From positions 15,628-79,627 of the forward strand of contig CAZVGK010000013.1 in the NCBI GenBank assembly GCA_964626665.1: 64,000 bases of DNA, read 5' to 3'. The stretch is from an uncultured Gemmatimonadota bacterium. Its GTDB lineage: Bacteria > SM23-81 > DAOVCL01. Positions 3,923 through 50,027 of the stretch are shown here, piece by piece. The notes beneath the pieces are model-generated. The model saw nothing but the letters and a program-made list of their open reading frames with translations, was not told where the DNA came from and did not search any database. Every line of letters starts with the position of its first letter. The stretch's first letter is position 1. A program made the translations under genes and the position numbers.

Positions 3923-4318
3923 ATGGCGGGAAAGATAAGGGTTCTGGTAGCCAAACCTGGCCTAGATGGCCATGACAGGGGGGCAAAAGTGGTGGCCGCT
4001 GCCCTGCGGGATGCAGGCATGGAAGTGATCTACACTGGTTTACATCAAACACCCGAACAGATTGTGGAGGCGGCAATCCAGGAGGATGTGGATTTCATTG
4101 GGATATCAATCCTCTCCGGGGCCCATATGACCATATTCCCCAGGATCCTTAAGCTTTTGCAGGACAAGGGGGCAGGTCACATAATCGTCTCCGGCGGTGG
4201 TATAATCCCGCGGGAAGATATGGAGAAGCTGGAAAAAGTTGGCGTCAAGAAGCTCTTTGGCCCGGGGACCCCCACATCTGAGATCGTGGAATGGGCGAGG
4301 GAGGTGATTAAGAAATGA
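3923..4318 (+). CDS. Cobalamin-binding small subunit of acyl-CoA mutase
   Basis: [12 protein letters not shown] (DxHxxG) and SILSGAH. ATG 3923 follows the RBS GGGGGTGA. Confidence 0.95.
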
Positions 4319-5634: not shown

Positions 5635-6020
5635 GGTTTCTGGCTGATATGGGGATCTCTCCAAAAACGGTGGCTTTTCTTCGGGAACTTGGGCATGAGG
5701 CAGTGCATCTTTACGAAGGAGGACTTTACCGCTTAGAGGATCCGGCGATTCTAACAAAAGCACGGGAAGAAAGGTGTATTCTCCTGACCCATGACCTGGA
5801 CTTCGGGGAGTTGATAGCAGCCAGTGGAGCCCAATTGCCCAGTGTTGTTGTTTTTCGCCTACGCAACATGCGTCCTCAGATGGTCAACCGTTACTTAAAA
5901 AGCATTATTGAGCAGTATGGGGAATCCCTTGAGAAAGGCGTGATCGTAAGTGTGACCGAGGGACGAATTCGGGTTCGTCTTCTCCCTTTGCGGGCAAGCG
6001 AACAAGGCCTTGGATCATAG
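5631..6020 (+). CDS. DUF5615 PIN-like toxin
   Basis: MRFLADMGIS...D..IL..AREE.CILLTHDLDFG. ATGA overlap with the DUF433 stop codon. Confidence 0.9.
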   Translation: MRFLADMGISPKTVAFLRELGHEAVHLYEGGLYRLEDPAILTKAREERCILLTHDLDFGELIAASGAQLPSVVVFRLRNMRPQMVNRYLKSIIEQYGESLEKGVIVSVTEGRIRVRLLPLRASEQGLGS

Positions 6021-10960: not shown

Positions 10961-10999
10961 AAATACCTAAAAAGTCCAAAATACCTAAATGCCTAAAAT
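10961..10999 (+). repeat. Left arm: (A/G)CCTAAA(T) 8-bp tandem array
   Basis: aaatacctaaaaagtccaaaatacctaaatgcctaaaat begins immediately after the BCCP stop codon. Confidence 0.85.
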
Positions 11000-11380
11000 A
11001 TGGAGAAGAAATATAGCGTTAGCGATGAGCTCAAAGGGAGAACCTATAATTTTGCCTTGAGAATTCTAAGACTTGGCAGGTTGTTGCCAAATACTGAAGA
11101 GGGCAGGATAGTTAGGAGACAGGTTTTCAAAGCAGGCACTTCAGTAGGGGCCAATCTGGAAGAAGCCGATGGTTCCTTAAGCTTAAATGACTTCATATAC
11201 AAGGTGGACATCGCCTTTAAGGAGGCGAAGGAAACCAGATATTGGTTGCAGATGATCATTGATGCAGGGTTTATCCCTCAAAAGAGGGTGTCACCAGATC
11301 TGGAAGAGTGTGTAGAGATCATCAAAATCTTGTCGACCATAATCTATAGGAGTTTAAAAAGGAAGAAAACTAAGATCTAA
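11000..11380 (+). CDS. Four helix bundle protein (TIGR02436 / 23S rRNA IVS protein-like)
   Basis: 126 aa: RTYNFALRIL...RQVFKAGTSVGANLEEA...DFIYKVDIAFKEAKETRYWL...EIIKILSTI. Confidence 0.92.
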   Translation: MEKKYSVSDELKGRTYNFALRILRLGRLLPNTEEGRIVRRQVFKAGTSVGANLEEADGSLSLNDFIYKVDIAFKEAKETRYWLQMIIDAGFIPQKRVSPDLEECVEIIKILSTIIYRSLKRKKTKI

Positions 11381-11414
11381 GTCTTTAGGTATTTAGGTCT
11401 TTAGGCATTTAGGT
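11381..11414 (+). repeat. Right arm: TTTAGG(T/C) 8-bp tandem array, inverted relative to the left arm
   Basis: gtc-tttaggta-tttaggtc-tttaggca-tttaggtg. 15 bp are the exact reverse complement of ACCTAAATGCCTAAA in the left arm. Confidence 0.9.
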
Positions 11415-20154: not shown

Positions 20155-20405
20155 GTCATTGCGTAGTTAGGTCATTGAGTCTGTAAGTATACGAGAAATT
20201 GGCAGAAAGTGAGAAACTTAGTCAGATACAAATGGACGGGCAGGAAGCTGGAGCAGAAGTTGGCCTCATCCTTATGAAGCATTGGCTCTAAACTATGTCA
20301 TCGGAATGATTTCGCTAAACCCTACACCACTTTGACTCAACAACTCAATAAACTCAATAGACTCAACAGATTCAATGACTCAATAGACTCAACGCACTCA
20401 ACAAA
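20151..20405 (+). repeat. TTGAGTC / GACTCAA inverted arrays enclosing a decayed four-helix-bundle remnant
   Basis: The left arm 20151-20181 contains the thiolase stop codon. The right arm 20334-20405 has about 8 units. The interior encodes NWQKVRNLV, compared with WQGARDLV in the intact gene at 20853. Confidence 0.75.
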
Positions 20406-20416
20406 CGGAGGTTATT

Positions 20417-20824
20417 ATGCCAGTGCCAAGGTATACAAGGGAGATACCCCAAAGATTCAGGCTGGAGGCGAGTAGGTGCAAATCCTGCGGTAAGATTCTT
20501 TTCCCCCCTAGGCCTGTCTGCCCACAATGTGGGTCAAAGGAATTTGAAAAAGTGCGGTTGAGCGATAAGGGGAAGGTGGTTACCTTCACGGTAATTAGGG
20601 TTGCTTCTGAGCAGTTCGCTACCCAGACACCCTATGTGGTAGCTGTGGTGGAGTTGAGTGATGGAGCGCGCATAACCACCCAAGTGGTGGACTGCCGGCC
20701 GGAGGAGGTAGAGATTGGGAAGTCGGTGCGGCTTGTTTTCCGGAGGGTTCAAGAAGAGGGCAAAACAGGCATCCTCAATTATGGGTACAAGGGTGTGTTG
20801 AGTCAGGACTCATTGAGTCGTTGA
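20417..20824 (+). CDS. DUF35 Zn-ribbon/OB-fold protein (thiolase partner)
   Basis: C..CG...FPPR..CP.C, GKVVTFTVI, TPYVVAVVEL..G. Confidence 0.93.
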   Translation: MPVPRYTREIPQRFRLEASRCKSCGKILFPPRPVCPQCGSKEFEKVRLSDKGKVVTFTVIRVASEQFATQTPYVVAVVELSDGARITTQVVDCRPEEVEIGKSVRLVFRRVQEEGKTGILNYGYKGVLSQDSLSR

Positions 20825-20828
20825 GTCA
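20798..20828 (+). repeat. Left arm: TTGAGTC array overlapping the DUF35 stop codon
   Basis: ttgagtcaggactcattgagtcgttgagtca encodes LSQDSLSR*. Confidence 0.85.
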
Positions 20829-20852
20829 TAGAAATCCTTGGGCCGCCGAGTG

Positions 20853-21236
20853 ATGAAGATCAAAAGATTCGAAGACATAAAAGCTTGGCAAGGGGCAAGG
20901 GATTTGGTCAACAAAATATATAAGGCCATAAGGGGTAATAATGGCTTTTATCGAGATTTCAGGTTCAGGGAACAGATACAGGCGGCAGGTATTTCTGTGA
21001 TGTCTAATATCGCAGAAGGGTTTGCCAGGAGTAGCGACCGTGAGTTTAAAAGGTTCTTATGGATAGCTAAAGGTTCTCTCGCAGAGGTTCAGAGTCAACT
21101 GTGGGTGGCGCTTGATCAAGGGTATGTCACCCAGGATGATTTTGATAGGCTATATGCAAAGGCGGAAGAAGTGGCCAAGCTAATTTCCGGTTTCATCACC
21201 TATCTCCTCGACTCAAAGACCCAACGGACTCAATGA
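20853..21236 (+). CDS. Four helix bundle protein (23S rRNA IVS protein / bAvd-like)
   Basis: FEDIKAWQGARDL...QIQAAGISVMSNIAEGFAR...EF.RFL.IAKGS..EV.SQL..A.DQGY...KLISGFI. Confidence 0.93.
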   Translation: MKIKRFEDIKAWQGARDLVNKIYKAIRGNNGFYRDFRFREQIQAAGISVMSNIAEGFARSSDREFKRFLWIAKGSLAEVQSQLWVALDQGYVTQDDFDRLYAKAEEVAKLISGFITYLLDSKTQRTQ

Positions 21237-21322
21237 CTCAGAACTCAAAGACCCAATAGGCCCAACGGACTCAGAGACTAAATGACTCAACGACTCAATA
21301 GACTCAATGAACTCAACAAACT
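21210..21322 (+). repeat. Right arm: about 13 GACTCAA-type units
   Basis: gactcaaa gacccaacg gactcaat gactcaga actcaaa ... gactcaac gactcaata gactcaat gaactcaac. Confidence 0.92.
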
Positions 21323-26094: not shown

Positions 26095-26584
26095 GTTCGT
26101 CTACGCGGGCAAAACTTATCGGGTAAACGTTGAAGCAGCCACGGGATCGTGGTTGATCAGCATCGATGACGGAGAGCCTTTAGAGGTTAAGCTAATTTCT
26201 TCCTCCCCGTATTGCCTCTCCTTCTCAATGGGGGGTAGGCCCATAACCGCCTATGCCCTGCAAGGGGATGGCCGGAGGTACATCTCCATAGATGGCGAGT
26301 CCTTTTCCTTTGAGTTGGAGAAGAGTAGGGCAAGGAGGGCCCCTGGGGTAGCGGCCCAGGGGGGAGGAAATGTGGTCAGTTCCCCGATGCCCGGCTTTTT
26401 GGTGAAGGTGCTCGTCTCAGGTGGTGACAAAGTAGAGGTAGGGCAAACGCTGGCCATTGTTGAGGCAATGAAGATGGAGAATGAGCTGAAGTCACCGATT
26501 AAAGGGATAGTAAAGCGGGTAAAATTCGAGGAGGGCAACCAGGTGGACGCCCTCCAACCCATTGTAGAGTTGGAAGCTGTTTAG
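26081..26584 (+). CDS. Biotin carboxyl carrier protein
   Basis: SPMPG...EAMKMENE. Confidence 0.92.
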   Translation: MVEYRFVYAGKTYRVNVEAATGSWLISIDDGEPLEVKLISSSPYCLSFSMGGRPITAYALQGDGRRYISIDGESFSFELEKSRARRAPGVAAQGGGNVVSSPMPGFLVKVLVSGGDKVEVGQTLAIVEAMKMENELKSPIKGIVKRVKFEEGNQVDALQPIVELEAV

Positions 26585-26852
26585 TCTACGAGTCTAAAAG
26601 TCTAATAGTCTAAGAGATTGAGGTCTTTCCATTAGCTATAAGGGATGTTGAGAAGTTTCGCAGAGGTTTTAGGAAGAAGAAGTCCTAAAAGGGTTTGGAT
26701 ATCATCTGGGAATAACCGAAGGGTTGATCTTTTAATATCACCGTAATTGGAGGACTGGCGTTGCGGGGAGAGACAATAAAGATATTGAATTCCCTTTGCA
26801 CAATGGTGCCCCACCACTTTTAGACTTTTAGACTCTTAAGCTGCTAAGCTGC
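26581..26852 (+). repeat. AGTCTAA / TTAGACT inverted arrays enclosing a decayed four-helix-bundle remnant
   Basis: The left arm 26581-26613 contains the BCCP stop codon; the right arm is 26818-26852. Interior fragments read IEVFPLA, (A)EGFR..S, YHLGITEG and GETIKILNSL. Confidence 0.65.
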
Positions 26853-26859
26853 TCCCTAC

Positions 26860-27719: not shown

Positions 27720-28502
27720 ATGGGGTATAAAAGCTTGATTGTGGAGATTGCCGACCAGGTAGCCGTGGTGAAGATAAATCGTCCCCCGGTAAACGCGATG
27801 AATGCCGAAGTGGCCCGGGAACTGGAGGGGGCAATGCATAACCTAAATGACAACGCCGATGTGAGGGTAATCATCATTACCGGTGAAGGCAAGGCCTTTG
27901 TTGCTGGCGCGGATATTGCGGCTATGTCCAAGTTCAATTCACTCCAAGCAAGGGAGTTTGGGAAGTTAGGATGTCGTGTGCTTTCCTATATTGAGAATAT
28001 GGAGGAGCCGGTAATTGCCGCGGTAAATGGGTATGCGTTGGGAGGCGGTTGTGAGATCGCTATGGCCTGTGATATCAGGATAGCCTCCTCCAAGGCGCTC
28101 TTCGGCCAGCCAGAGCTGAAGCTTGGGCTTATCCCCGGATGGGCGGGCACCCAAAGGATGTCACGCATCCTGGGGATTGGCAAGGCGAAGGAGTTGATAT
28201 TTACCGGCGACTCCATTGATGCTCAGGAGGCTCTCAGGATTGGACTGGTGAACAGGGTTGTTCCCCCTGAGGAGCTGATGGACGAGGCCCAAAAATTTGC
28301 TCAGAAGATGTTAGAAACGGGACCCACTGCCCTTAAGCTGGCCAAGACCGTTATAAATCGGGGTCTTGACTCTAACTTCACCACTGCGTCATCCTATGAG
28401 TCGGAGGCCTTTGGGGTCTGCTTCTCTACCCCCGAGGTTAAGGAGGGGATGCAGGCATTCTTAGAAAAGCGTAAACCAAAATGGAGTTTATTGAGTTCGT
28501 AG
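27720..28502 (+). CDS. Enoyl-CoA hydratase (crotonase)
   Basis: AFVAGADI, AAVNGYALGGGCEIAMACD, FGQPELKLGLIPGWAGTQR. Confidence 0.93.
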   Translation: MGYKSLIVEIADQVAVVKINRPPVNAMNAEVARELEGAMHNLNDNADVRVIIITGEGKAFVAGADIAAMSKFNSLQAREFGKLGCRVLSYIENMEEPVIAAVNGYALGGGCEIAMACDIRIASSKALFGQPELKLGLIPGWAGTQRMSRILGIGKAKELIFTGDSIDAQEALRIGLVNRVVPPEELMDEAQKFAQKMLETGPTALKLAKTVINRGLDSNFTTASSYESEAFGVCFSTPEVKEGMQAFLEKRKPKWSLLSS

Positions 28503-28641
28503 AGTTTATTGAGTCTGTTGAGTTTATTGAGTTTTAGGATGTTGACTCAACGAACTGGGTGAACTCAAAGAACTGAGCTAACTCAATGGACTGTGCGGAC
28601 TCAAAAGACTGTGTTGACTCAATGAACTGAGTAGACTCAAA
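28484..28641. repeat. Empty cassette: TTGAGT array directly facing an ACTCAA array
   Basis: The left arm 28484-28535 supplies the crotonase stop codon. A spacer of about 8 nt is followed by the right arm 28543-28641, ending just before the RBS GGGAGGTG. Confidence 0.88.
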
Positions 28642-31482: not shown

Positions 31483-31487
31483 GGGGG

Positions 31488-31574
31488 GAATAGGGGACGG
31501 TGGTGCAGAAATTGTCAAACGCTTTCGGCTTGCCCTCCCCTATGTCCTTAATTTCTATTTTTCAGCCTGACCCC
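31488..31574. repeat. About 87-bp repeat (AATAGGGGAC...CCTGACCCC), copy 1 of 3
   Basis: Near-identical at 33154-33241 and 37122-37209. Internal ATAGGGGA/TCCCCTAT stem. Confidence 0.92.
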
Positions 31575-32416
31575 ATTGATGACCCGTTAGGTGACGGCGT
31601 CTCGTCTATTGGGGCTAAGAGGGTATCTCGCTTTAGGAGACGACTTAACCAGATGGCCCCAACAACTAAAATTACGAGACTGAAAGTAACGACTGGCCAT
31701 GGTAAATGCTCCATTTCTTCCAGCATCTCACGCTTGTATCCCATCCTCGATAGTAACGACATGTAGAGAAACCACGAACTGTTTCCCACTGCATGACTAA
31801 CGATCGAAGGAATGAGAGATCCTGTTCTCATGAATAACCACGCGGACGCAATCCCGAACAGAAACGCCCCTACCGCTTGCCATGGGTTTAGATGAAACAG
31901 TGCGAATATGGTAGCTGATGCCAGAACTGCTCTTGTTTTCGAGTATCTACCAAGAAAACCCTGGAGCATCCAGCCCCTAAAATAGAATTCCTCTGCCAAA
32001 GGTGCTACGACGACTGCTGCCAAGAATGAGGCGGTGCGATTCTCCCCCATCATACTTTCAAAGAATTTCTGTAATGATTCTGGCATGGGTACCATTCCGG
32101 CGAGTTCCCCCAGAACAACCGAGGCCCCAAGTGACGCAATTATCAGAGGAAAGACGATTTGACCGGCGATAGGCTTTAGCGGATAGGAGATTCTCCAAGG
32201 TGTTCTCATAATTCGCAGGACAACAAACAGAGTCAGTGCCCAGGCAATAACCTGAACTGCCAGAAATGATGTAGATGCATCAAGGTCAAGCAAGTGAACA
32301 AGTATCCACGCGCTGATAAAGAAGACATAGAAAAGGGCTGAGATTTCTATCGCTTTCTGAATGGTCAGATACTTTGTGGCCACTTGAGCATTTTCGCTTT
32401 GTTGATCCTTGATCAC
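31562..32416 (-). CDS. CPBP family intramembrane glutamic endopeptidase (CAAX protease/Abi), cassette gene
   Basis: APLAEEFYFRG, FALFHLNPWQ, SIVSHAVGN. The cassette begins at GTTAGGC (32472-32478). Confidence 0.92.
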   Translation of the reverse strand: MIKDQQSENAQVATKYLTIQKAIEISALFYVFFISAWILVHLLDLDASTSFLAVQVIAWALTLFVVLRIMRTPWRISYPLKPIAGQIVFPLIIASLGASVVLGELAGMVPMPESLQKFFESMMGENRTASFLAAVVVAPLAEEFYFRGWMLQGFLGRYSKTRAVLASATIFALFHLNPWQAVGAFLFGIASAWLFMRTGSLIPSIVSHAVGNSSWFLYMSLLSRMGYKREMLEEMEHLPWPVVTFSLVILVVGAIWLSRLLKRDTLLAPIDETPSPNGSSMGSG

Positions 32417-33126: not shown

Positions 33127-33153
33127 TTACTCAAACTCCTTGGTTTTCATGGA

Positions 33154-33241
33154 GAAATAGGGGACGGTGGTGCAGAAATTGTCAAACGCTTTCGGCTTGC
33201 CCTCCCCTATGTCCTTAATTTCTATTTTTCAGCCTGACCCC
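33154..33241. repeat. About 87-bp repeat, copy 2
   Basis: Identical core to 31488-31574. Confidence 0.92.
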
Positions 33242-34082
33242 ATTGATGACCCGTTAGGTGACGGCGTCTCGTCTATTGGGGCTAAGAGGGTATCTCGCTT
33301 TAGGAGACGACTTAACCAGATGGCCCCAACAACTAAAATTACGAGACTGAAAGTAACGACTGGCCATGGTAAATGCTCCATTTCTTCCAGCATCTCACGC
33401 TTGTATCCCATCCTCGATAGTAACGACATGTAGAGAAACCACGAACTGTTTCCCACTGCATGACTAACGATTGAAGGAATGAGAGATCCTGTTCTCATGA
33501 ATAACCATGCGGACGCAATCCCGAACGGAAACGCCCCTACTGCTTGCCATGGGTTTAGATGAAACAGTGCGAATATGGTAGCTGATGCCAGGACTGCTCT
33601 TGTTCTCGAATATCTACCAAGAAAACCCTGGAGCATCCAGCCCCTAAAGTAGAATTCCTCTGCCAAAGGCGCTACGACGACTGCTGCCAAGACCATAGCG
33701 ATGCGATTCCCCTTCATCATACCTTCAAGGAATTTCTGTAATGATTCTGGCGCGGGTATCATTCCGGCGAGTTCCCCAGAACAACCGACGCCCAAAGTGA
33801 CGCAATTATCAGAGGAAAAAAGATTCGACCGGCGATAGGCTTTAGCGGATAAGAGATTCTCCAAGACGTTCTCGCAATTCGCAAGGCAACAAACAGAGTC
33901 AGTGCCCAGGCAACAACCTGTACTGCCAGAAATGATGTAGATGCATCAAGGTCAAGCAAGCGAACAGGTATTGCCACGCAGATACAGAAGACATAGATAA
34001 GGGTTGAGATTTTTATCGCTTTCTGAATGGTAGGATGCTTTGCGGTTACTTGAGAATTTTCGCTTTGTTGGTTCTCGATCAC
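33229..34082 (-). pseudogene. Second CPBP protease cassette gene, frameshifted
   Basis: Split into ORFs 33759..34082 and 33229..33864. ttccccag at about 33772 versus ttcccccag in copy 1 is a 1-bp deletion. Confidence 0.88.
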
Positions 34083-34190: not shown

Positions 34191-34225
34191 TGCAGGATAA
34201 GAACCCGCGTCATTTCTGGGATTGT

Positions 34226-34459
34226 GAAAGTTAAGGGGTCAGGTCTTGCTTTTTGACCTTCAGGTTTTCCTGCCTGCCCTTGAATAGAGAAAGTACACAA
34301 AGACGATTTATACCTAAGCCTCCTCCAAAGCCGAGAAGAGGAATTCACAAATATGGTAAATGTCCTCCCTTTTAGTTGGGACCCTTGCTGAAAAATTATC
34401 CCCATAGGCTCTTAACCAAAAACTGATTACAAAAATGGCAAAGAGCAAGACTTGACCTC
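34226..34459. mobile_element. About 230-bp MITE-like element with GGGGTCAGGTCTTGC / GCAAGACTTGACCTC ends
   Basis: Terminal inverted repeats. The left ~140 bp are shared with 38991-39135. Confidence 0.7.
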
Positions 34460-34461
34460 AC

Positions 34462-35540
34462 GATTTCCCTGCTTCAATCGAGTCGTTCAACCCGAAATCG
34501 CTGATAATTCAACTGTAGAGTGATTCTTCTCCCGATTTTTTACCGGACGGCGCAAAAGGCGTGGCAGAAAAATCAAAGCAGCGCAGTATTCCTCTGCTTT
34601 TTTGCAGTCTGTCCAATCCACCGATCCAGACGGTGGCTTCTTCCGCACTGTCCTTCATGTCCCGCTGACGCAGGTATTCCCCCCTAGCTTCCACATTGGT
34701 TCGCCAGGCATGATGCGCCTCATCGTTAATAACAATCAGATTGCGGCTGTTTGCCATATCGCCCAGCACCTGACGGGTATAGGCCTCATCGCTCAACACG
34801 CCGCGTTTATCCACGCTTTTTTTCTTCTGGACCTGCTCATCGCTTTCCCACGACAGTTTATGCCAGTTGATTACCTTGATGCGGCCCTGCCGCAACCGTT
34901 CCATCAAGCCCTGGGGAACAATATTGAATTCCTCATAGTAATCCTCAGGGGCAGTGGGATATAACACCGACAAGCGTTTTTTTACGGTCAGTCCCGGAGC
35001 CACAACAAGAACATCTTTGGCAAACCGGGTATTCTGGCGGTTCGTGATCTTGTTCAGCACCTGCCAGGCAATCAGCATGGCCATGATGACCGTTTTGCCA
35101 GTGCCGGTGGCCATCTTGCAGCACCAGCGCGCAAACTCTCCGCCGTCCCCCGGGATCTCAATACCGGTCTTTCCCGCTTCAGGTGCCTCATTCAGCCAGA
35201 TCAGGGTTTCTATGGCTTCCAGTTGACAGAAGAAAAACCGCCTGATTTCCCGTTCCTCCGGGTCCTGCCAGTGATGAAGCAGCCGGCGGGTGATGCCGGA
35301 AACACCGGGATACCCATTCCCCCGCCAGGCCTTTAACCGGGGGCGGATTTTATTGACCAGTTCAATGGGCACAAAGACCCCCGGATCATCAAACCCACTG
35401 CTGTCCGGCATAGTGACAACATATCCGGCAGGCCTGCGACCCTTGCGTCTTTCAAATGAGCGATGTTCCCGGTCATAATGCCAGTAATATTTCGGCTCCT
35501 CATACGGAGAGTTGATGATGAGTTTGTCTATCTGTTTCAT
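34462..35540 (-). pseudogene. Type III restriction Res subunit, N-terminal half (truncated)
   Basis: FFFCQLEAIET, KMATGTGKT, INDEAHH, FSATP. After a TGA at 34509 the homology continues (IISDFGLNDSIEAG) until cut by the 34226-34459 element. Confidence 0.88.
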
Positions 35541-35881
35541 TTTTTCTCTTTATCAAGTATCACCTTAAGAGTTGTGAGAAGCGGCGGCAAATCTGCCTGT
35601 ACCGTTTTCCATACGATTTCATAATCAATCTCGAAATAGGCGTGGACTAAAACATTTCGCATGGATATTACATCCCGCCAATCAATGTTATTGTATTTTT
35701 CTCGGAATGGTTTTGAGATTTTGGAAGCCGCTTCGCCAATAACTTCTATAGAACGAACCGTTGCGTTTGTGGTCATTCTGTCTTTGCAAAATTCTTCAAA
35801 AGTTATGCCCTTACAGAAAGATACAGCAGCTTGCGCTTCTTCAAGTATATGCGATATTCTGGTAATATCATCAATGACCAT
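35537..35881 (-). CDS. HepT-like (DUF86/HEPN) ribonuclease toxin
   Basis: VRSIEVIGEAA, W.D..SMRNVLVHAY (RxxxxH), VWKTV..DLP. Confidence 0.92.
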   Translation of the reverse strand: MVIDDITRISHILEEAQAAVSFCKGITFEEFCKDRMTTNATVRSIEVIGEAASKISKPFREKYNNIDWRDVISMRNVLVHAYFEIDYEIVWKTVQADLPPLLTTLKVILDKEKK

Positions 35882-36173
35882 ACTGTATCACCGCATTCTT
35901 TACCACATCATCCCTGAAATAACGGCTTAGATCATTTGGGGTGTGAAGTTCGACCTCTCTACCTATTAGGTCGGATAGCAAATTTTGAATATGACAAAAT
36001 CCCATAAGGCCTGGCGCTTTCCCAGGCTCAAATTCAATAAGTATATCAACATCGCTGTCCGCGGTCAGTTCATCACGCAAAGCCGACCCAAACAGAGAAA
36101 GTTTTCTGATTCGATATTCACTGCAGATTGACTTCATTTGCTCATCTGAAATATAATCCCCGAGCTTAAACAT
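35871..36173 (-). CDS. MNT nucleotidyltransferase antitoxin
   Basis: LSLFGSALR...DSDVDILIEF...GREVEL. Confidence 0.92.
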   Translation of the reverse strand: MFKLGDYISDEQMKSICSEYRIRKLSLFGSALRDELTADSDVDILIEFEPGKAPGLMGFCHIQNLLSDLIGREVELHTPNDLSRYFRDDVVKNAVIQYGH

Positions 36174-36185
36174 AATAAATCCCCC

Positions 36186-36509
36186 TTATAGTGGTATTAC
36201 CCTTAAGCTTTCAATGCCCCTGTCGTCTATGATTTTTACGGCGATTTTGGTGTTTTCCCCCTTTTTAAAAGGAAGCGAACCCGTCCCCTTAAATGCCTCG
36301 ATCTTTTCCTCATCAATTTCAGCTTTCAGGTTCCTTGCCAGTTTGCTCCAGCCGTCTTTCGCTCCGGCCATAGGGAAAAATACCTGGGATGGAAACAGGC
36401 TGCGGTCGTCATAGTCGGTATCCAGAAGCCACATGGCGATGTTCCCCTTGCCGCCGGAATCCACATTCCCGGTTTTGGGGTTGTAATAATCAAAGCCAAG
36501 CACCTCCAC
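36186..36509 (-). pseudogene. C-terminal remnant of a type III RM methyltransferase (Mod)
   Basis: VEVLGFDYYNPKTG, IAMWLLDTDYD.RSLFP.QVFFP, IAVKIIDDRGIESL. No catalytic core is present upstream. Confidence 0.8.
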
Positions 36510-36511
36510 TT

Positions 36512-36598
36512 GTGAATAGTGAACAGTGGTTAGTGGCGAGTGGACAGTGATTTGAGCTGACCTGTCAATAATTTGCTTATTTCCTCGTAATTGTTTAA
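36512..36598 (-). pseudogene. 3' remnant of a four-helix-bundle gene plus its downstream CCACT/TCACT array
   Basis: Minus strand encodes LNNYEEISKLLTGQLKSLSTRH*, running into cactgtccactcgccactaaccactgttcactattcac. Confidence 0.7.
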
Positions 36599-36659
36599 GA
36601 AAATTCGGGACACTTCCTAAATTTCTCGTTGGTGTTGGCTATCATTCATAAGAAATATG

Positions 36660-36943
36660 GCAGGATACCGCCGCTCGTGAGCGGCGGAGGAATGCCATCC
36701 GCTTTGGGGATCGTTAAGGGGCAAAATCCCCTTAACACAATTCCGCTTTAGCGGGATTGCATTTTTGTCCTCCCGTGGTTATCTTTAGGTAACTAATGGG
36801 AGGACGGAATCATGCCTATTCGAAAAGCAGCCCATGTTACCTATAATATCTAATACCACTTTGTCTGGATTCCCAAGTATCAGAAGATGGTCCTCGATGG
36901 TGAAATTGCTCAGGAGTTGGAGAAACTGATCTATGTGGTGTAG
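36660..36943 (+). pseudogene. tnpA: IS200/IS605 tnpA remnant with flanking hairpins
   Basis: From ATG 36812: MPIRKAAHVTYNI*YHFVWIPKYQKMVLDGEIAQELEKLIYVV*. Hairpin ccgccgctc/gagcggcgg at about 36670. Confidence 0.8.
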
Positions 36944-37209
36944 GGTCAGGTCTTGCCTTTTGCCACCTTGCGCCTTGAGGCTATCCTGCTTAACCGTGAG
37001 TAGCGCCCCCTCAAAATTCCCCAACTTCCCTAAGTTTGTATCCCCACCTATAAAGGCCCTCGTATATACCCTAAATCCTCTCCCTCCCAATATGAATCCT
37101 CCCTTTACCTCCTACATGTGAGAAATAGGGGACGGTGGTGCAGAAATTGTCAAACGCTTTCGGCTTGCCCTCCTCTATGTCCTTAATTTCTATTTTTCAG
37201 CCTGACTCC
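36943..37209. mobile_element. Composite small element with GGGTCAGG ends, including copy 3 of the 87-bp repeat
   Basis: Starts agggtcaggtcttgcc exactly where tnpA stops and ends cagcctgactcc. Confidence 0.6.
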
Positions 37210-37337
37210 ATCGACTTATCCAAGCAACATCAGGATTGTGCAGATTCAATTCGTTCATCTTGAGCATAACGAAAAAAGCCACGAACCGTTCATCAACCTG
37301 CTGTTTGGACCATTGACAGACTTCGTCGATTGGCTGC

Positions 37338-38198: not shown

Positions 38199-38990
38199 TC
38201 AACCATAACGCCTCGTATCAAAAAAGCTTCCTGCATCACGACAATAATAGTCCCATACAGCATCTAAAACATTTGCAGAAGTTTTCTGATTCCACACTGC
38301 GCGCGTTCCTTCAGGGTGCCAACTACCATGATCCGAAATATAGGCGGAAAAAAGTCCAATCTTTGAATTTGCGCAGTTTGTTTTCAATCGCCCAAAGCAT
38401 CGGCCAATTAGGTCCGCCGGCATCATGTCCGCGTCGGTGTACGTTAGTTCTTCACACTCTCCAGTTTCTGCATTCGTAAGACGGGTCACGCCTACATTGC
38501 GCCAACTTTCACGCGGACTTTGATCAGAAACGATTAGATGCCCTACCGCGACATAAGGAAAACCGGCATCTATAAGAGCTTGGGTCTGAGAAAACCCGAA
38601 CTGGTTTGGCGATTTTCCTTGTTTGGCGAAAGAGGATCGAACGGCTTTCAGCTCAACCGCCAAAGTTTTAGAGAGTACCAATGTATCTCCTTCGTAGGGG
38701 ATAATTAAAAGGTCAATATCGCCAGGAAACAACACGCCGTGCAATATGGCATTTGTTTGAACAAAACCGCGGATGAATACTCCGCTGTTTTCTGGCATCG
38801 ACGCGAAATACTCTGGTAAAAGTTGCTGATAGCAAAACCCAAACAGCCTTCTATTTACGACCAACTTGATACCCAGAACTTTTTCATCTTCCTTCTCGAG
38901 AAGCTTTTTGGGAACGACAAAAACTTCTGATCCGCCATGTAAATATTGCGGGCGAATATTGATCGGCTTGCGATAGTCTTCGATATCCAT
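38199..38990 (-). CDS. Hypothetical cassette protein with a PD-(D/E)xK-like motif
   Basis: FPGDIDLLII...LAVELKAV...FGFSQ. Start set at ATG 38990 because the longer ORF reads through a repeat element. Confidence 0.65.
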   Translation of the reverse strand: MDIEDYRKPINIRPQYLHGGSEVFVVPKKLLEKEDEKVLGIKLVVNRRLFGFCYQQLLPEYFASMPENSGVFIRGFVQTNAILHGVLFPGDIDLLIIPYEGDTLVLSKTLAVELKAVRSSFAKQGKSPNQFGFSQTQALIDAGFPYVAVGHLIVSDQSPRESWRNVGVTRLTNAETGECEELTYTDADMMPADLIGRCFGRLKTNCANSKIGLFSAYISDHGSWHPEGTRAVWNQKTSANVLDAVWDYYCRDAGSFFDTRRYG

Positions 38991-39135
38991 GAAAGTTAAG
39001 GGGTCAGGTCTTGCTTTTTGCCCCCCTTGAGATTCTCCTGCTTGCCCTTGAATAGAGAAAGTGCACAAAGACAATTTATACTTAAGCCGCCTCCAAAGCC
39101 AAGAAGGGAAGTAGGAAAATATGGGAATTGTCCTT
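38991..39135. repeat. Partial copy of the 34226 element
   Basis: gaaagttaaggggtcaggtcttgctttttg...gcccttgaatagagaaagt.cacaaagac..tttatac.taagcc..ctccaaagcc is shared with 34226. Confidence 0.8.
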
Positions 39136-39362
39136 ACTTCTTCCCGGTGAGTTAAAACGTGCTTTGTTTGGCATACTAACAATATAACAAAAGGAGTTAC
39201 TCCTGTCAATTTATTATTTTGTGGACATTGAGCGAGAACCCCCCAAAGGTAAAACCTTGGGGAATCACCCTTGGAGGGCCATCAAGGGTTGGATAGGAGA
39301 CCTGAGGGGATATCCCCCGGAATTAACAGAATACGGTGAGCCTTCTTTTCCGGCTAAGTTCT

Positions 39363-46072: not shown

Positions 46073-46112
46073 ATTGTAAATTGAAAGTTGTAAATATCAA
46101 ATTTGAAATTGC
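46073..46112 (-). repeat. Downstream arm: CAATTT-type 7-bp array
   Basis: Minus strand gcaatttcaaatttgatatttacaactttcaatttacaat, ending before the ROK RBS. Confidence 0.8.
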
Positions 46113-46472
46113 TCATTGCCTTTTCTTCGCCGTTATTACCGATTTTCCAATAATTTTACTAATTCGTTCAGTCTCCTTTAAGGCTTCTTCGAACTCTGCT
46201 CCTCCCAAAATTTGGGAACGTTGGATTAGTTTTAACCAATACATTGATTCCCGAGTTTCTTTCAGAACAATATGCAGTTTGTGGATAAAATCTGCTCTAC
46301 TTTGAGCACCTCGAGCTTCCTCATAATTGGCACCAACAGATGTTCCTGAACGCAACAATTGATTCCCTATATGCTTACCGATTGCCGTCTTATTTAACCT
46401 GGCGCAGATTTTGATGATCGCCACGCCATAATCAAGCAATCGCTCAGATATTTGAGCAGCCTTATCTTCCAT
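46113..46472 (-). CDS. Four helix bundle protein (TIGR02436)
   Basis: ERLLDY...NQLLRSGTSVGANYEEARGAQSRADFIHKL.IVLKETRESMYWL...ISKIIGKSVIT. Confidence 0.93.
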   Translation of the reverse strand: MEDKAAQISERLLDYGVAIIKICARLNKTAIGKHIGNQLLRSGTSVGANYEEARGAQSRADFIHKLHIVLKETRESMYWLKLIQRSQILGGAEFEEALKETERISKIIGKSVITAKKRQ

Positions 46473-46510
46473 TTTGCAATTTAAAATTTTCAATTTGCAA
46501 TTTGCAATAC
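46473..46510 (-). repeat. Upstream arm: AAATTGC 7-bp array
   Basis: Minus strand gtattgcaaattgcaaattgaaaattttaaattgcaaa starts right after the trmO stop codon. Confidence 0.85.
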
Positions 46511-47144: not shown

Positions 47145-50027
47145 TTATCGGAGGATTACCATCTTCTTGGTCTTTTCCACCTTAGACCTATTACCTGTTA
47201 CCTTTAACCTATAGAAATAGACCCCGCTTGCCACTTGCCTGCCTGAATCATCCCGCCCATCCCACTGGACCCGATAATTGCCCCCAGGCTGTTCCTCATC
47301 CACTAAGGTCTTCACCTCCTGCCCTAAGATGTTGTAGAGCCTGAGGGTGGTGTGGTGCGGCCTGACCCCTGACAACTGATAGCTGATTGCTGTAGTTGAA
47401 TTGAACGGATTCGGATAGTTCTGGGACAGGGCAAAATTCTGGGGCAGACCAAAATCGTTATTCCTTGGCTCATCCACTTTATCCCAATCCCAAGTGACAA
47501 CTTTGGCATATATGTCCCAGCCCTTGGACCGCCGGGCATCCGTCCAGCTAAAGGTTATGATATCGTCATTAAGGGCTATTGAAGGACCCCATTGAATTGG
47601 GTTAGGGCCTGCAGGTTTTTGATTAACTAAATAGTTTATCCCCCAGCGAGTGCCATCGGAGTGGTATCTTTGGGCATAGATGTCACAGTCACTATTCCGA
47701 TAATCATGCCAACAGATAATGAAATCATTTTCCCTACCGATTGCTATTGAGGAAGAGGACTGCCAATTTTCCCCTTCATCATCGTTCACCCGGAAGTTTG
47801 AGCCCAGTGTATCTCCCGAAATGCTGTACCGCTGAGCATAGATATCGGGAGAGCTATCTTCCCGGTAGTCATCCCAAGAGATGATGAAATTACCATCCGA
47901 ACCCATTGACCCCCGGGGGTAAAGCTGATCACTTGTCCCCTCATTGTCATTCACCTGGAAATTCGAGCCCACTGTATCACCTAAATTGCTATATCGTTGG
48001 GCATAAATGTCCCAGTTACCATTACGCTCGTCCTCCCAACAGATGATGAAATTACCACTTCCATCCATTGCTACCGAGGGATATTTTTGATCACTTGTTC
48101 CCACATTATCATTTACCTGGAAATTTCCACCTAGAGGGTTACCTAAACTGTCATATCGCTGAGCATAGATATCTGAATTTTCATCCCAATCGCCATTGCG
48201 CCTGTCGGCCCAACAGATGACGAAATTGCCACTCTCATCCATCGCTACCGAAGGCTCCTGTTGATAACTTGCTCCCTCATCATCATTCACCCGAAAGTTC
48301 CCCCCAAGTGTATCTCCTGAACTGTCATACCGCCGAGCATAGATGTCCAAGAAGACGTTGCGGCTATCCTCCCAACAGATAATGAAATTCCCGTGCACAT
48401 TCATTCCAATTGAAGGATACCTTTGCAAGCTTCTCGCGGTATCATCATTCACTTTGAAATTTGTCCCCAGTGTATTTCCGGAGGCCTCGTATCGCTGGGC
48501 ATAGATATCGTAGTTCGCATTCCGTTTATCCTGCCAACAGATGACGAAATCGCCATTCCCATCCTTGACTACAGAGGATGAGTATTGCCAGCTTGTCCGT
48601 GCATCATCATTTACCTGGAAATTCGCCCCCACTGCATGACCCAAACTGTTATACCGCTGGGCATAGATGTCTGAGTCCTCATTGCGTTCATCTTCCCAAC
48701 AGATAATAAAATCTCCCTCCCCGTCCATCGCTACCGAGGGAACCTCTTGCCAACTTGTCCCCTCATCATCATTTACCCGGAAATTTGAGCCCAGTGTGTC
48801 CCCCGAACTGTTGAACCGTTGGGCATAGATGTCCATATTGTCGTTCCGGTTATCTGCCCAACTGATGACAAAATCTCCACTCCTATCCATTGCTACCGAG
48901 GAATACCATTTTTGACAAATTTCTCCCACATCATCATTCACCCGGAAGTTTCCTCCCAGTGTGTCACCTGAACTGCTATACCGCTGGGCATAGATGTTGT
49001 AATAACCTTCTCCCCAGCAGATGACAAAATTCCCTTTTTTATCCGTTGCCACGGAGGGAGACCATTGTGAACTTGTCTCCACCTCATCATTTACTTGGAA
49101 GTTTGAGCCTACTGTGTCACCCAAACAGCTATATCGCTGGGCATAGATGTCCCAATTACCGTTACGGGGATCTTCCCAACAGATGACGAAACCTCCATCC
49201 CCGTCCATCGCTACCGAGGGATCCCGTTGTGCACTCGTTCCCTCATCATCGTTTACCCGGAAGTTCCCCCTCAGTGTGTCACCTGAACTGCCATACTGCT
49301 GGGCGTAGATGTCGGGATCTTTCTCCCCATTGCGTTCATCTTCCCAACAGATGACAAAAGTCCCTTCTCCATCCATCGCTATCGAGGGATTCCTCTGATA
49401 ACTTGTCCCCTCATCATGGTTTACCCGGAAGTTTCCCCCCACTGTATCCCCCGAACTAGTGAATCGCTGAGCATAGATGTCCCAGTCACCATTACGCTTG
49501 TCTTCCCAACAGATGACGAAATCGCCGTCCTCGTTCATTGCTATCGAGGGAAATAATTGAGGAGTTGATCCCAAATCATTGTTTACCATAAAATTTGGAC
49601 CAAGTATGTCACCTGAATTAGTAAAACGTTGAGCATAGATGTCTAACTCCCCATTGCGATAATCTTCCCAACAGACGACGAAATTACCAGATGTGTCCAT
49701 GGCAATAGCAGAATACCACTGCCTACATCCACCCGTAGTGTCGTCGTTGACTAAGAAGTCGTCCTTGATGATGCCGAAAATCGTGTTTGCTTCCTCTGGC
49801 TTTAGCATTCTTCCCTCTGGCAGGGAGATGGGTAATTGATGTGCTCTATCTCTCCTCGACCTGCGATGAGGAAAATCCCTCTCCACCAACCAGAACTGAC
49901 CACTTCCCACATCAATCTCCCACCCTCTAACCTCAGGGGCAAAAGGCTGCCATTGGGCAGGGCAGAAATCCGCTGCTCCCAGAGAGAACAGGAACCCAAG
50001 TAAAAACACCAAACTTGCCTTACGCAT
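47145..50027 (-). CDS. Secreted repeat protein (about 14 x ~53-aa DIYAQR repeats, probable beta-propellers) with a FlgD/T9SS-like C-terminal domain
   Basis: Signal peptide, 14 DIYAQR-like motifs, C-terminus LSQNYPNPFN...YNILGQEVKTL...WDGRD..G..VASGVYFYRL...KKMVILR. Confidence 0.88.
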   Translation of the reverse strand: MRKASLVFLLGFLFSLGAADFCPAQWQPFAPEVRGWEIDVGSGQFWLVERDFPHRRSRRDRAHQLPISLPEGRMLKPEEANTIFGIIKDDFLVNDDTTGGCRQWYSAIAMDTSGNFVVCWEDYRNGELDIYAQRFTNSGDILGPNFMVNNDLGSTPQLFPSIAMNEDGDFVICWEDKRNGDWDIYAQRFTSSGDTVGGNFRVNHDEGTSYQRNPSIAMDGEGTFVICWEDERNGEKDPDIYAQQYGSSGDTLRGNFRVNDDEGTSAQRDPSVAMDGDGGFVICWEDPRNGNWDIYAQRYSCLGDTVGSNFQVNDEVETSSQWSPSVATDKKGNFVICWGEGYYNIYAQRYSSSGDTLGGNFRVNDDVGEICQKWYSSVAMDRSGDFVISWADNRNDNMDIYAQRFNSSGDTLGSNFRVNDDEGTSWQEVPSVAMDGEGDFIICWEDERNEDSDIYAQRYNSLGHAVGANFQVNDDARTSWQYSSSVVKDGNGDFVICWQDKRNANYDIYAQRYEASGNTLGTNFKVNDDTARSLQRYPSIGMNVHGNFIICWEDSRNVFLDIYARRYDSSGDTLGGNFRVNDDEGASYQQEPSVAMDESGNFVICWADRRNGDWDENSDIYAQRYDSLGNPLGGNFQVNDNVGTSDQKYPSVAMDGSGNFIICWEDERNGNWDIYAQRYSNLGDTVGSNFQVNDNEGTSDQLYPRGSMGSDGNFIISWDDYREDSSPDIYAQRYSISGDTLGSNFRVNDDEGENWQSSSSIAIGRENDFIICWHDYRNSDCDIYAQRYHSDGTRWGINYLVNQKPAGPNPIQWGPSIALNDDIITFSWTDARRSKGWDIYAKVVTWDWDKVDEPRNNDFGLPQNFALSQNYPNPFNSTTAISYQLSGVRPHHTTLRLYNILGQEVKTLVDEEQPGGNYRVQWDGRDDSGRQVASGVYFYRLKVTGNRSKVEKTKKMVILR

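Follow-up and report, generated by a model that had tools for sequence, protein, structure and literature searches.

A methyltransferase remnant joined to part of a cassette

In the 64,000 nt stretch of DNA that was analysed (the window), the locus of interest lies on the minus strand and consists, in 5′ to 3′ order, of unrelated hairpin-bearing sequence, the tail of a four-helix-bundle (4HB) gene of family PF05635, an arm of heptamer repeats and the C-terminus of a type III-like Mod methyltransferase (Table 1). The arm is built of the units ATCACTG, TCCACTC, GCCACTA, ACCACTG, TTCACTA and TTCACAA, it overlaps the last codons of the 4HB remnant and runs without a gap into the mod gene (CAA GTG GAG GTG CTT GGC, read as QVEVLG at 36512). 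An initial annotation, made from the sequence alone, had described a CCACT array joined directly to QVEVLGFDYY; the array and the direct junction were correctly seen, the repeat unit is really 7 nt long. Its further claim that the arm is open in the Mod frame also holds, there being no stop codon across the arm or anywhere in a stretch of 42 codons. The stretch comprises the arm together with the 4HB remnant read in its -1 frame. Its homologue in cassette-bearing Mods is their read-through segment, and tblastn aligns these Mods into the window as far as 36599–36617.

The surviving 108-aa Mod piece shares 69–92% identity with the C-terminus of other Mods. A tblastn search with full-length Mods found no other Mod segment in the window, in line with the earlier view that the upstream half had been lost here, and the PF01555 methyltransferase domain that marks EcoP15I-type Mods is present in the orthologues and absent from the window, hence the window copy is a gene fragment. 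The 4HB remnant gave no PF05635 profile match (hmmscan of the 146-aa translation, of which the remnant makes up 28 aa), it does match the exact C-terminus of intact PF05635 genes from orthologous cassettes (BLASTP against the 4HB protein of locus L087, E 1e-7, 15 of 25 residues identical). DNA homology to two such cassettes (L087 and L062) starts at ~36622 and continues downwards from there, with a near-identity of sequence that extends to the arm. Positions 35800–37149 were recovered as a single contig in four independent salt-marsh runs, three without differences and one with a single-base difference at 37114, which lies outside the finding; as these independent contigs span the region, we take the junction to be real DNA and no assembly artefact.

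Table 1 Features of the remnant locus in the window and host loci elsewhere (positions are those of the window unless a locus is named)
Feature	Position or locus	Strand	Basis or remark
Type III Res subunit, N-terminal 343 aa, truncated	34509..35540	-	Pfam PF04851
HepT-like ribonuclease, toxin-like partner of MNT	35537..35881	-	Pfam PF01934
MNT-type nucleotidyltransferase, antitoxin-like, directly downstream of mod remnant	35871..36173	-	Pfam PF01909
mod 3′ remnant, type III-like Mod, last 108 residues (QVEVLGFDYY...RVIPL)	36186..36512	-	Stop at 36186-36188; QVEVLGFDYYNPKTG...RVIPL*
Right arm of cassette, ~6 imperfect heptamers NNCACTN	~36513..36553	-	Near-identical in L087 and L062
Stop-free Mod-frame stretch, 42 codons upstream of Q	36513..36638	-	Reads ...NFLKQLRGNKQIIDRSAQITVHSPLTTVHYS and then directly QVEVLGFDYY
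3′ remnant of PF05635 4HB gene, 28 codons	36533-36616, TAA 36530-36532	-	EVSRIFLNNYEEISKLLTGQLKSLSTRH
Breakpoint, end of homology to intact cassettes	36617..36630		DNA alignment; upstream 4HB part, left arm and ModN missing
IS200/IS605-like remnant (hairpin 36657-36698, Y1-transposase pseudogene ~36812-36946)	36657..36946	+	Pfam PF01797, E 2.4e-6
Mod loci with 19-40-aa linker inserts	L027, L038, L043, L055, L060, L071, L080, L081, L083		Just upstream of position 6001 or listed match
Leucyl-tRNA synthetase (LeuRS) hosts	L118 (992 aa), L163
DnaG-like primase host	L139
MmeI/Eco57I-like enzyme hosts	L093, L158		One shared site

The neighbourhood of the remnant is that of a restriction-modification locus in decay. 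A PF04851 helicase-nuclease gene (res), as expected beside mod in a type III system, is adjacent in the window in truncated form and is full length in relatives, where Res measures 940–1030 aa. The arrangement of mod C-terminus and MNT gene recurs in seven other loci (L001-L007). On the other side, the Y1-transposase pseudogene has an internal stop and is truncated, and the IS200-like remnant to which it belongs lies directly against the cut end of the 4HB gene. The window system is dead: a break at ~36622, beside the IS200-like remnant, took away the N-terminal part of Mod (ModN) and what else there had been of the cassette, only 343 aa of Res are left, and the copy described here is a relic within a decayed defence locus.

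As a separate observation, the MNT-HepT toxin-antitoxin pair (35537-36173, minus strand) is nested between mod and res, an order conserved in the closest relatives, and several of the related loci (L001, L006) have kept the C-terminal part of Mod (ModC), MNT, HepT and Res with ModN deleted.

The Mod family and its linker site

QVEVLGFDYY lies ~730–740 residues into full-length Mods of ~840 aa, at an internal point and not at a natural start, just as the initial annotation had placed it. The same annotation would have been contradicted had such C-terminal fragments normally been separate genes; among GTDB genome loci with enough upstream sequence the great majority instead have the C-terminal segment contiguous with a 700–900-aa upstream Mod ORF, which carries PF01555 and matches the type III Mod PDB chains 6k0w and 4zcf. 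We rejected the notion of ModC as a normally separate gene, which had arisen from a misleading retrieval bias: a first word-indexed protein search with ModC listed only proteins of <190 aa, and the genome scan together with an exhaustive phmmer search exposed the bias.

Mods free of the cassette have a hairpin linker of 10 or 14 aa at the cassette position, which is always between SFWLIGQPDV and (Q)VxVxGFDYY. Other genomes have in-frame inserts in this linker that resemble translated small palindromic repeats (e.g. VIASEAKQS...IASPAVRND; Table 1), and because such inserts recur there the linker is a permissive loop, an insertion hot spot or both.

Intact cassettes inside mod genes

Intact copies were sought by four routes: the contigs of ModC relatives, a 4HB-protein HMM run on all fetched loci, a 4HB-seeded metagenome scan, and the exhaustive phmmer search, which covered 1.84 billion representatives. 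The same cassette was found at the same Mod position in at least 25 loci or protein clusters. The check proposed with the initial annotation, a database search for mod genes split at this position by a 4HB gene, thus succeeds many times over, and a 4HB cassette inside mod at exactly this junction is borne out by intact loci. The closest relative of the window's ModC is on Thermodesulfovibrionales contigs (L002-L005 and L007) in the order ModN (760 aa, PF01555), 4HB (120 aa, PF05635), ModC (125 aa), MNT and HepT. With the 4HB HMM, seven loci (genomes or contigs) proved to have a 4HB gene immediately 5′ of their ModC segment, and the intact 4HB genes at this junction match PF05635 and the custom 4HB HMM at E 1e-28 to 1e-52. 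In the metagenome scan the eight closest relatives of the embedded 4HB proteins were all inside Mod genes, and phmmer contributed another eight or more clusters at 50% identity (P0121-P0124, P0126, P0132, P0149 and P0244); a scan of viral contigs gave six distant 4HB genes, none of them relevant.

The intact element is ~450–465 nt long. Tandem heptamers form its left arm, after which come a Shine-Dalgarno (SD) sequence, a 4HB gene of ~120 codons and the right arm, the left one's inverted complement. In L065, L085, L052, L073, L062, L087-L092, L094 and L101, as well as in the P-clusters, the Mod ORF is continuous through the cassette, passing from the left arm into the -1 frame of the 4HB gene, which it follows from end to end, and on through the right arm. 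Continuous host ORFs measure 840–1471 aa. Comparison of filled with empty alleles (L065 and L085 against L079, L073 against L078) showed ~57 nt replaced by ~465 nt, with no target duplication. Intact Res ORFs of 969–1028 aa adjoin cassette-bearing Mods, and some cassette-bearing loci are themselves decaying: Mod is broken upstream in L062, and Res is fragmented in L062 and L094.

Read-through is not universal, since the L002-type lineage (L002-L005 and L007) is frameshifted. These loci share an A8 tract between the left arm and the SD of the 4HB gene (positions 3980–4002 in L002), and ModN ends at a TGA overlapping the ATG of the 4HB gene; with one A fewer (A7) the two parts would form a continuous 1006-aa Mod ORF, and cluster P0132 is an in-frame version of the same arm type. 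The A8 tract, as an aside, may be either a frameshift inactivation or a slippage switch.

In the Mod tree, cassette-free alleles (L079, L078 and L009) are the nearest neighbours of cassette-bearing ones, and the cassette-bearing Mods are scattered. A single ancient insertion inherited vertically was rejected on this ground, and repeated gain, loss or recombination is needed to account for the neighbouring of empty and filled alleles. The scattered distribution, the identical junctions and the lack of a target duplication suggest spread by allelic replacement, which might proceed by recombination through the conserved flanks.

The host frame is kept open and the 4HB protein is conserved

Embedded 4HB genes contain no stops in the -1 frame, which is the frame of the host, and 4–16 stops in the +1 frame. 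Shuffling of synonymous codons predicts 1.1–3.5 stops in the -1 frame, with P values of 0.007–0.26 for individual genes; gene by gene such values are modest, and it is the repetition from lineage to lineage that carries the argument. In the three intergenic 4HB copies of the window the -1 frame has 10–12 stops, and 75 non-embedded 4HB genes have a median of four (Mann-Whitney P 3.7e-10). Openness of the host frame is non-random and has been kept across deep divergence.

Differences between related cassettes concentrate at third codon positions of the 4HB gene (19 of 26 in one comparison, 55 of 80 in another), and host-frame residues change as fast as the residues of the non-coding +1 frame. 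From this pattern of substitution by codon position and frame, purifying selection acts on the 4HB protein and, in the host frame, selection is for openness only. In L093 the 4HB gene has a tryptophan codon changed to a stop, yet the 1471-aa host ORF is open. A protein search with an alignment of the -1-frame peptides as the query gave no matches, which we attribute to the candidate step of the search.

Arms and stems

The arm sequences are wholly different among lineages, e.g. (GGTTAGT)n, (TTTTAGT)n, (GGGACTG)n, (GGGGAGT)n and (GTGGCCA)n, and the right arm complements the left one in every lineage. Canonical left-arm units contain TAG, and in the register that falls in the host frame this is always GAG or CAG. 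The arm duplex scored z values of -2 to -8 in most of the 18 cassettes tested, it was weaker in L088, L091 and L158, and none was found in L093 at the tested offset. Double compensatory changes from GC to UA occur at 5 of 19 consensus pairs, and the arms of the LeuRS cassettes covary likewise, (GGGACTG)n/(CAGTCCC)n in one and (GGGGAGT)n/(ACTCCCC)n in the other. Inverted repeats able to form a stem around the ORF, as in an rRNA intervening sequence (IVS), flank most intact cassettes, and the window retains only the right arm. Stems that are long and perfect, which reach -87 kcal/mol, should be RNase III substrates by analogy with the 23S rRNA IVS (PMC4990558), so that some cleavage of the host mRNA is likely. 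The L087 cassette had no Rfam match, and Rfam matches in the window were at chance level only.

Other host genes

The combination of heptamer arms, SD and 4HB gene, with the host reading the -1 frame of the 4HB gene, also occurs outside Mod, in LeuRS, a DnaG-like primase and MmeI/Eco57I-like enzymes (Table 1). The L118 insert is clean, 137 aa placed between residues 363 and 368 of the T. thermophilus LeuRS. Mod and an MmeI-like gene share the CCACT-type cassette, which implies that transfer between unrelated genes happens. Among sequencing runs, the LeuRS locus occurred in DNA runs only, and RNA runs for L093 held at most 7% of the sampled words.

The same LeuRS gene of L118 (2397-5372) was seen to have two more in-frame insertions that consist of arm only and are built from the heptamer of its cassette, KGLGTGDWGLGE at about residues 255–266 and LPSPQSPVPSPQTPQS at about residues 815–830.

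Read-through and its alternatives

The cassette occupies surface-loop positions of large proteins, with the host frame kept open. We put a probability of roughly 0.7 on the reading that positions 36186-36640 of the window (minus strand) are the decayed right end of an IVS-like PF05635 cassette that was once embedded in a type III-like mod gene and was read through by host ribosomes. In this account the cassette would have replaced the DNA for the 10–14-aa β-hairpin linker between SFWLIGQPDV and GFDYYN of Mod, and the host would stay uninterrupted by virtue of a frame-keeping length, GAG or CAG in place of TAG in the host-frame register of the arm, and the stop-free -1 frame of the 4HB gene. 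Ribosomes would then read straight through, so that Mod would be made as a single polypeptide enlarged by a module of ~135–140 aa, and the 4HB protein would be made in the overlapping frame from its own SD and ATG on the same mRNA. The translation and activity of such a fused protein, and the spread of the cassette, we infer from support that is computational throughout.

In an AF2 model of one cassette-bearing Mod fragment (P0121, modelled from a shallow alignment; mean pLDDT 76.9), the segments encoded by the arms are predicted as long strands (208–218 and 353–368) with the insert between them; helices are predicted at both ends of the insert (pLDDT 83–92) and its middle (271–303) is disordered. 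This model suggests, as a lead only, that the nucleic-acid stem is translated into a β-ribbon that extends the native hairpin. Foldseek found no match to the model in the PDB at E ≤ 0.001.

The initial annotation had supposed that the downstream half is translated by restart, bypass or RNA excision, and these routes do not fit the intact loci, in which the host frame has no stop in either arm or anywhere in the 4HB gene. Restart has its best case in the L002-type loci, where ModN would stop in the left arm, ModC would restart after the 4HB stop by translational coupling and the two halves would assemble non-covalently, much as in genes split by free-standing homing-endonuclease genes. There the ModN stop overlaps the 4HB start, a GTG 2 nt past the 4HB stop opens the 125-aa ModC, and the arrangement is common to five assemblies from different samples. 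We nevertheless think a split gene unlikely, as this lineage is a single A short of a continuous ORF and P0132 has the in-frame form, the host ORF is continuous in all other embedded cassettes (19 loci and at least eight clusters), the continuous alleles lack a conserved start codon or SD ahead of their C-terminal part, and the stop-free -1 frame across the whole 4HB gene, not required of a split gene, is present even in L002. Removal at the RNA level, with RNase III cutting the paired arms and the halves of the message being rejoined or bypassed so that the cassette goes untranslated in the host frame, would suit the stable, covarying stems and the known excision by RNase III of 23S rRNA IVS bearing a PF05635 ORF (PMC4990558). 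It gives no reason, however, for a host frame open through ~450 nt in every lineage, it leaves unexplained why TAG is changed to GAG or CAG only in the in-frame arm register, excision of rRNA IVS leaves the fragments unligated, and no match to an Rfam intron or other RNA family was found. Excision and bypass are disfavoured because a maintained openness of the host frame would then be unnecessary, and we hold removal from the message to be very improbable. Taken together, the evidence speaks for plain read-through rather than for the three routes of the initial annotation.

Phase variation through changes in simple repeats is well known from type III mod genes, and the cassette might accordingly be kept as a contingency switch in which slippage of the repeat arms or homopolymer tracts turns Mod on and off. 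Heptamers are not multiples of three, so that the frame changes with every unit added or lost, and the L002 type is one base in its A8 tract away from an open ORF. The arrays are, however, short and imperfect, with 2–3 identical units, which makes them poor substrates for slippage, all five L002-type assemblies have A8 without length polymorphism, and leuS and the primase gene share the design although switching them off would harm; a role as a switch is thus quite improbable. That a deletion in the window merely brought a mod fragment up against an intergenic 4HB cassette unrelated to it could be imagined in a locus so heavily rearranged (IS200 remnant, multicopy repeats, truncated Res). The identical junction (arm followed by QVEVxGFDYY) with a near-identical arm in many unrelated genomes, where Mod is intact on both sides, refutes a chance juxtaposition, to which we give next to no credence.

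Beyond the read-through of a cassette embedded in mod, we lean slightly towards a wider proposition, in which these cassettes form a distinct intragenic and selfish sub-lineage of PF05635 that specialises in protein genes, essential ones included, has its gene overprinted on a stop-free -1 frame belonging to the host, uses arms that double as a β-ribbon, and moves between unrelated hosts without splicing.

Relation to known elements

The nearest parallel is the IVS of 23S rRNA with an S23p/PF05635 ORF, known from Coxiella and Leptospira, for which excision by RNase III has been demonstrated (Warrier et al. 2016, PMC4990558). The two share the protein family, the size (428 nt in Coxiella) and the stem-forming inverted repeats that flank the ORF; both replace the tip of a host hairpin and depend on transcription of the host, and the IVS too is regarded as selfish (PMC4990558). 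They differ in that the host here is protein-coding, a mod ORF without any rRNA match rather than helix 25 or 45 of 23S rRNA, and in that the frame is preserved through a frame-neutral length and a stop-free -1 frame. The arms here are tandem heptamer arrays, and excision of the cassette would be harmful.

Rickettsia palindromic elements (RPEs) and other MITEs are palindromic selfish DNA found in ORFs, where they keep the frame and are translated at tolerated sites (PMC10969869). Insertion into an ORF with preservation of the frame is common to them and to the present cassettes; RPEs, on the other hand, are ~100–150 bp long and gene-less, whereas the cassette carries a gene of ~120 codons under purifying selection in an overlapping frame. 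Inteins and homing-endonuclease genes resemble the cassette in their choice of conserved or essential hosts (LeuRS, primase and methyltransferases) and in the preservation of host function despite a large insertion. The cassette differs from them in having no splicing motif and a gene that is out of frame with the host, and Pfam searches of whole cassette-bearing proteins gave host domains only, with no Hint or endonuclease domain. The accessory protein bAvd of diversity-generating retroelements (PF22296) is related to PF05635 (PMC10053308); it has the homologous four-helix-bundle fold, and the embedded 4HB proteins have a weak precomputed match to bAvd, but neither a reverse transcriptase nor template and variable repeats are present beside the cassettes.

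In the literature that could be searched we found no published description of PF05635 cassettes inside protein genes, an absence that is no proof of novelty, and the class seems to represent a variant of selfish intragenic element that has yet to be described. If this reading is true, bacteria and archaea carry a mobile gene cassette with an undescribed solution to insertion into coding sequence: unlike introns and inteins it does not splice out, unlike MITEs it is neither tiny nor gene-less, and it uses one frame for itself and leaves another to its host. The odd repeat arms of PF05635 cassettes would then have an explanation in the function of their form, the long-puzzling ORFs of 23S rRNA IVS would be tied to a much wider family of hitchhiking elements, and natural permissive insertion sites would have been identified in LeuRS, primase and restriction-modification methyltransferases. 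For annotators, such a cassette would be a possible cause of Mod or LeuRS calls that are too long and of ModC-like mini-ORFs labelled ‘hypothetical’. For the window itself the practical message is modest.

Other cassettes and repeats in the window

Three intact intergenic PF05635 cassettes lie elsewhere in the window, at 10961-11414 (plus strand), 20800-21322 (plus) and 46073-46508 (minus), with inverted arms made of short repeats (units of 8–9 nt) and in the same orientation as the flanking genes. The left arm of the 20838 cassette overlaps the final codons of an upstream ChsH2-like gene, and an extra (GACTCAA)n array upstream of that gene (20334-20406) is oriented like the right arm at 21210-21322. 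Between two other genes, at 28484-28641, is an arm-only hairpin that lacks a 4HB gene, (GAGTTTATT)n being followed without a gap by (GACTCAA..)n; the gene upstream extends with its final codons into the arm, and the whole looks like a gene-less derivative of a cassette. An inverted pair of repeat arrays around ~200 nt without 4HB homology (26583-26853) is possibly a decayed cassette.

A 95-nt repeat is present at 31485-31579, 33152-33246 and 37120-37214; it is multicopy in the genome, its read depth is 4–8 times that of its flanks, and contigs branch there. A second copy of the segment 31484-32407 lies at 33151-34073, and two Rce1-like CPBP genes are the result. A second repeat family (34225-34371, 38990-39139 and a partial copy at 36932-36965) flanks the decayed restriction-modification locus, one of its copies sitting where Res is truncated, and the region, in which repeats lie between small toxin-antitoxin-like genes, is reminiscent of a cassette array. 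Further along, at 47868-49684 (minus strand), ~6–7 tandem copies of a 162-nt repeat, 69–78% alike, lie within a 960-aa ORF that apparently encodes a repeat-domain protein.
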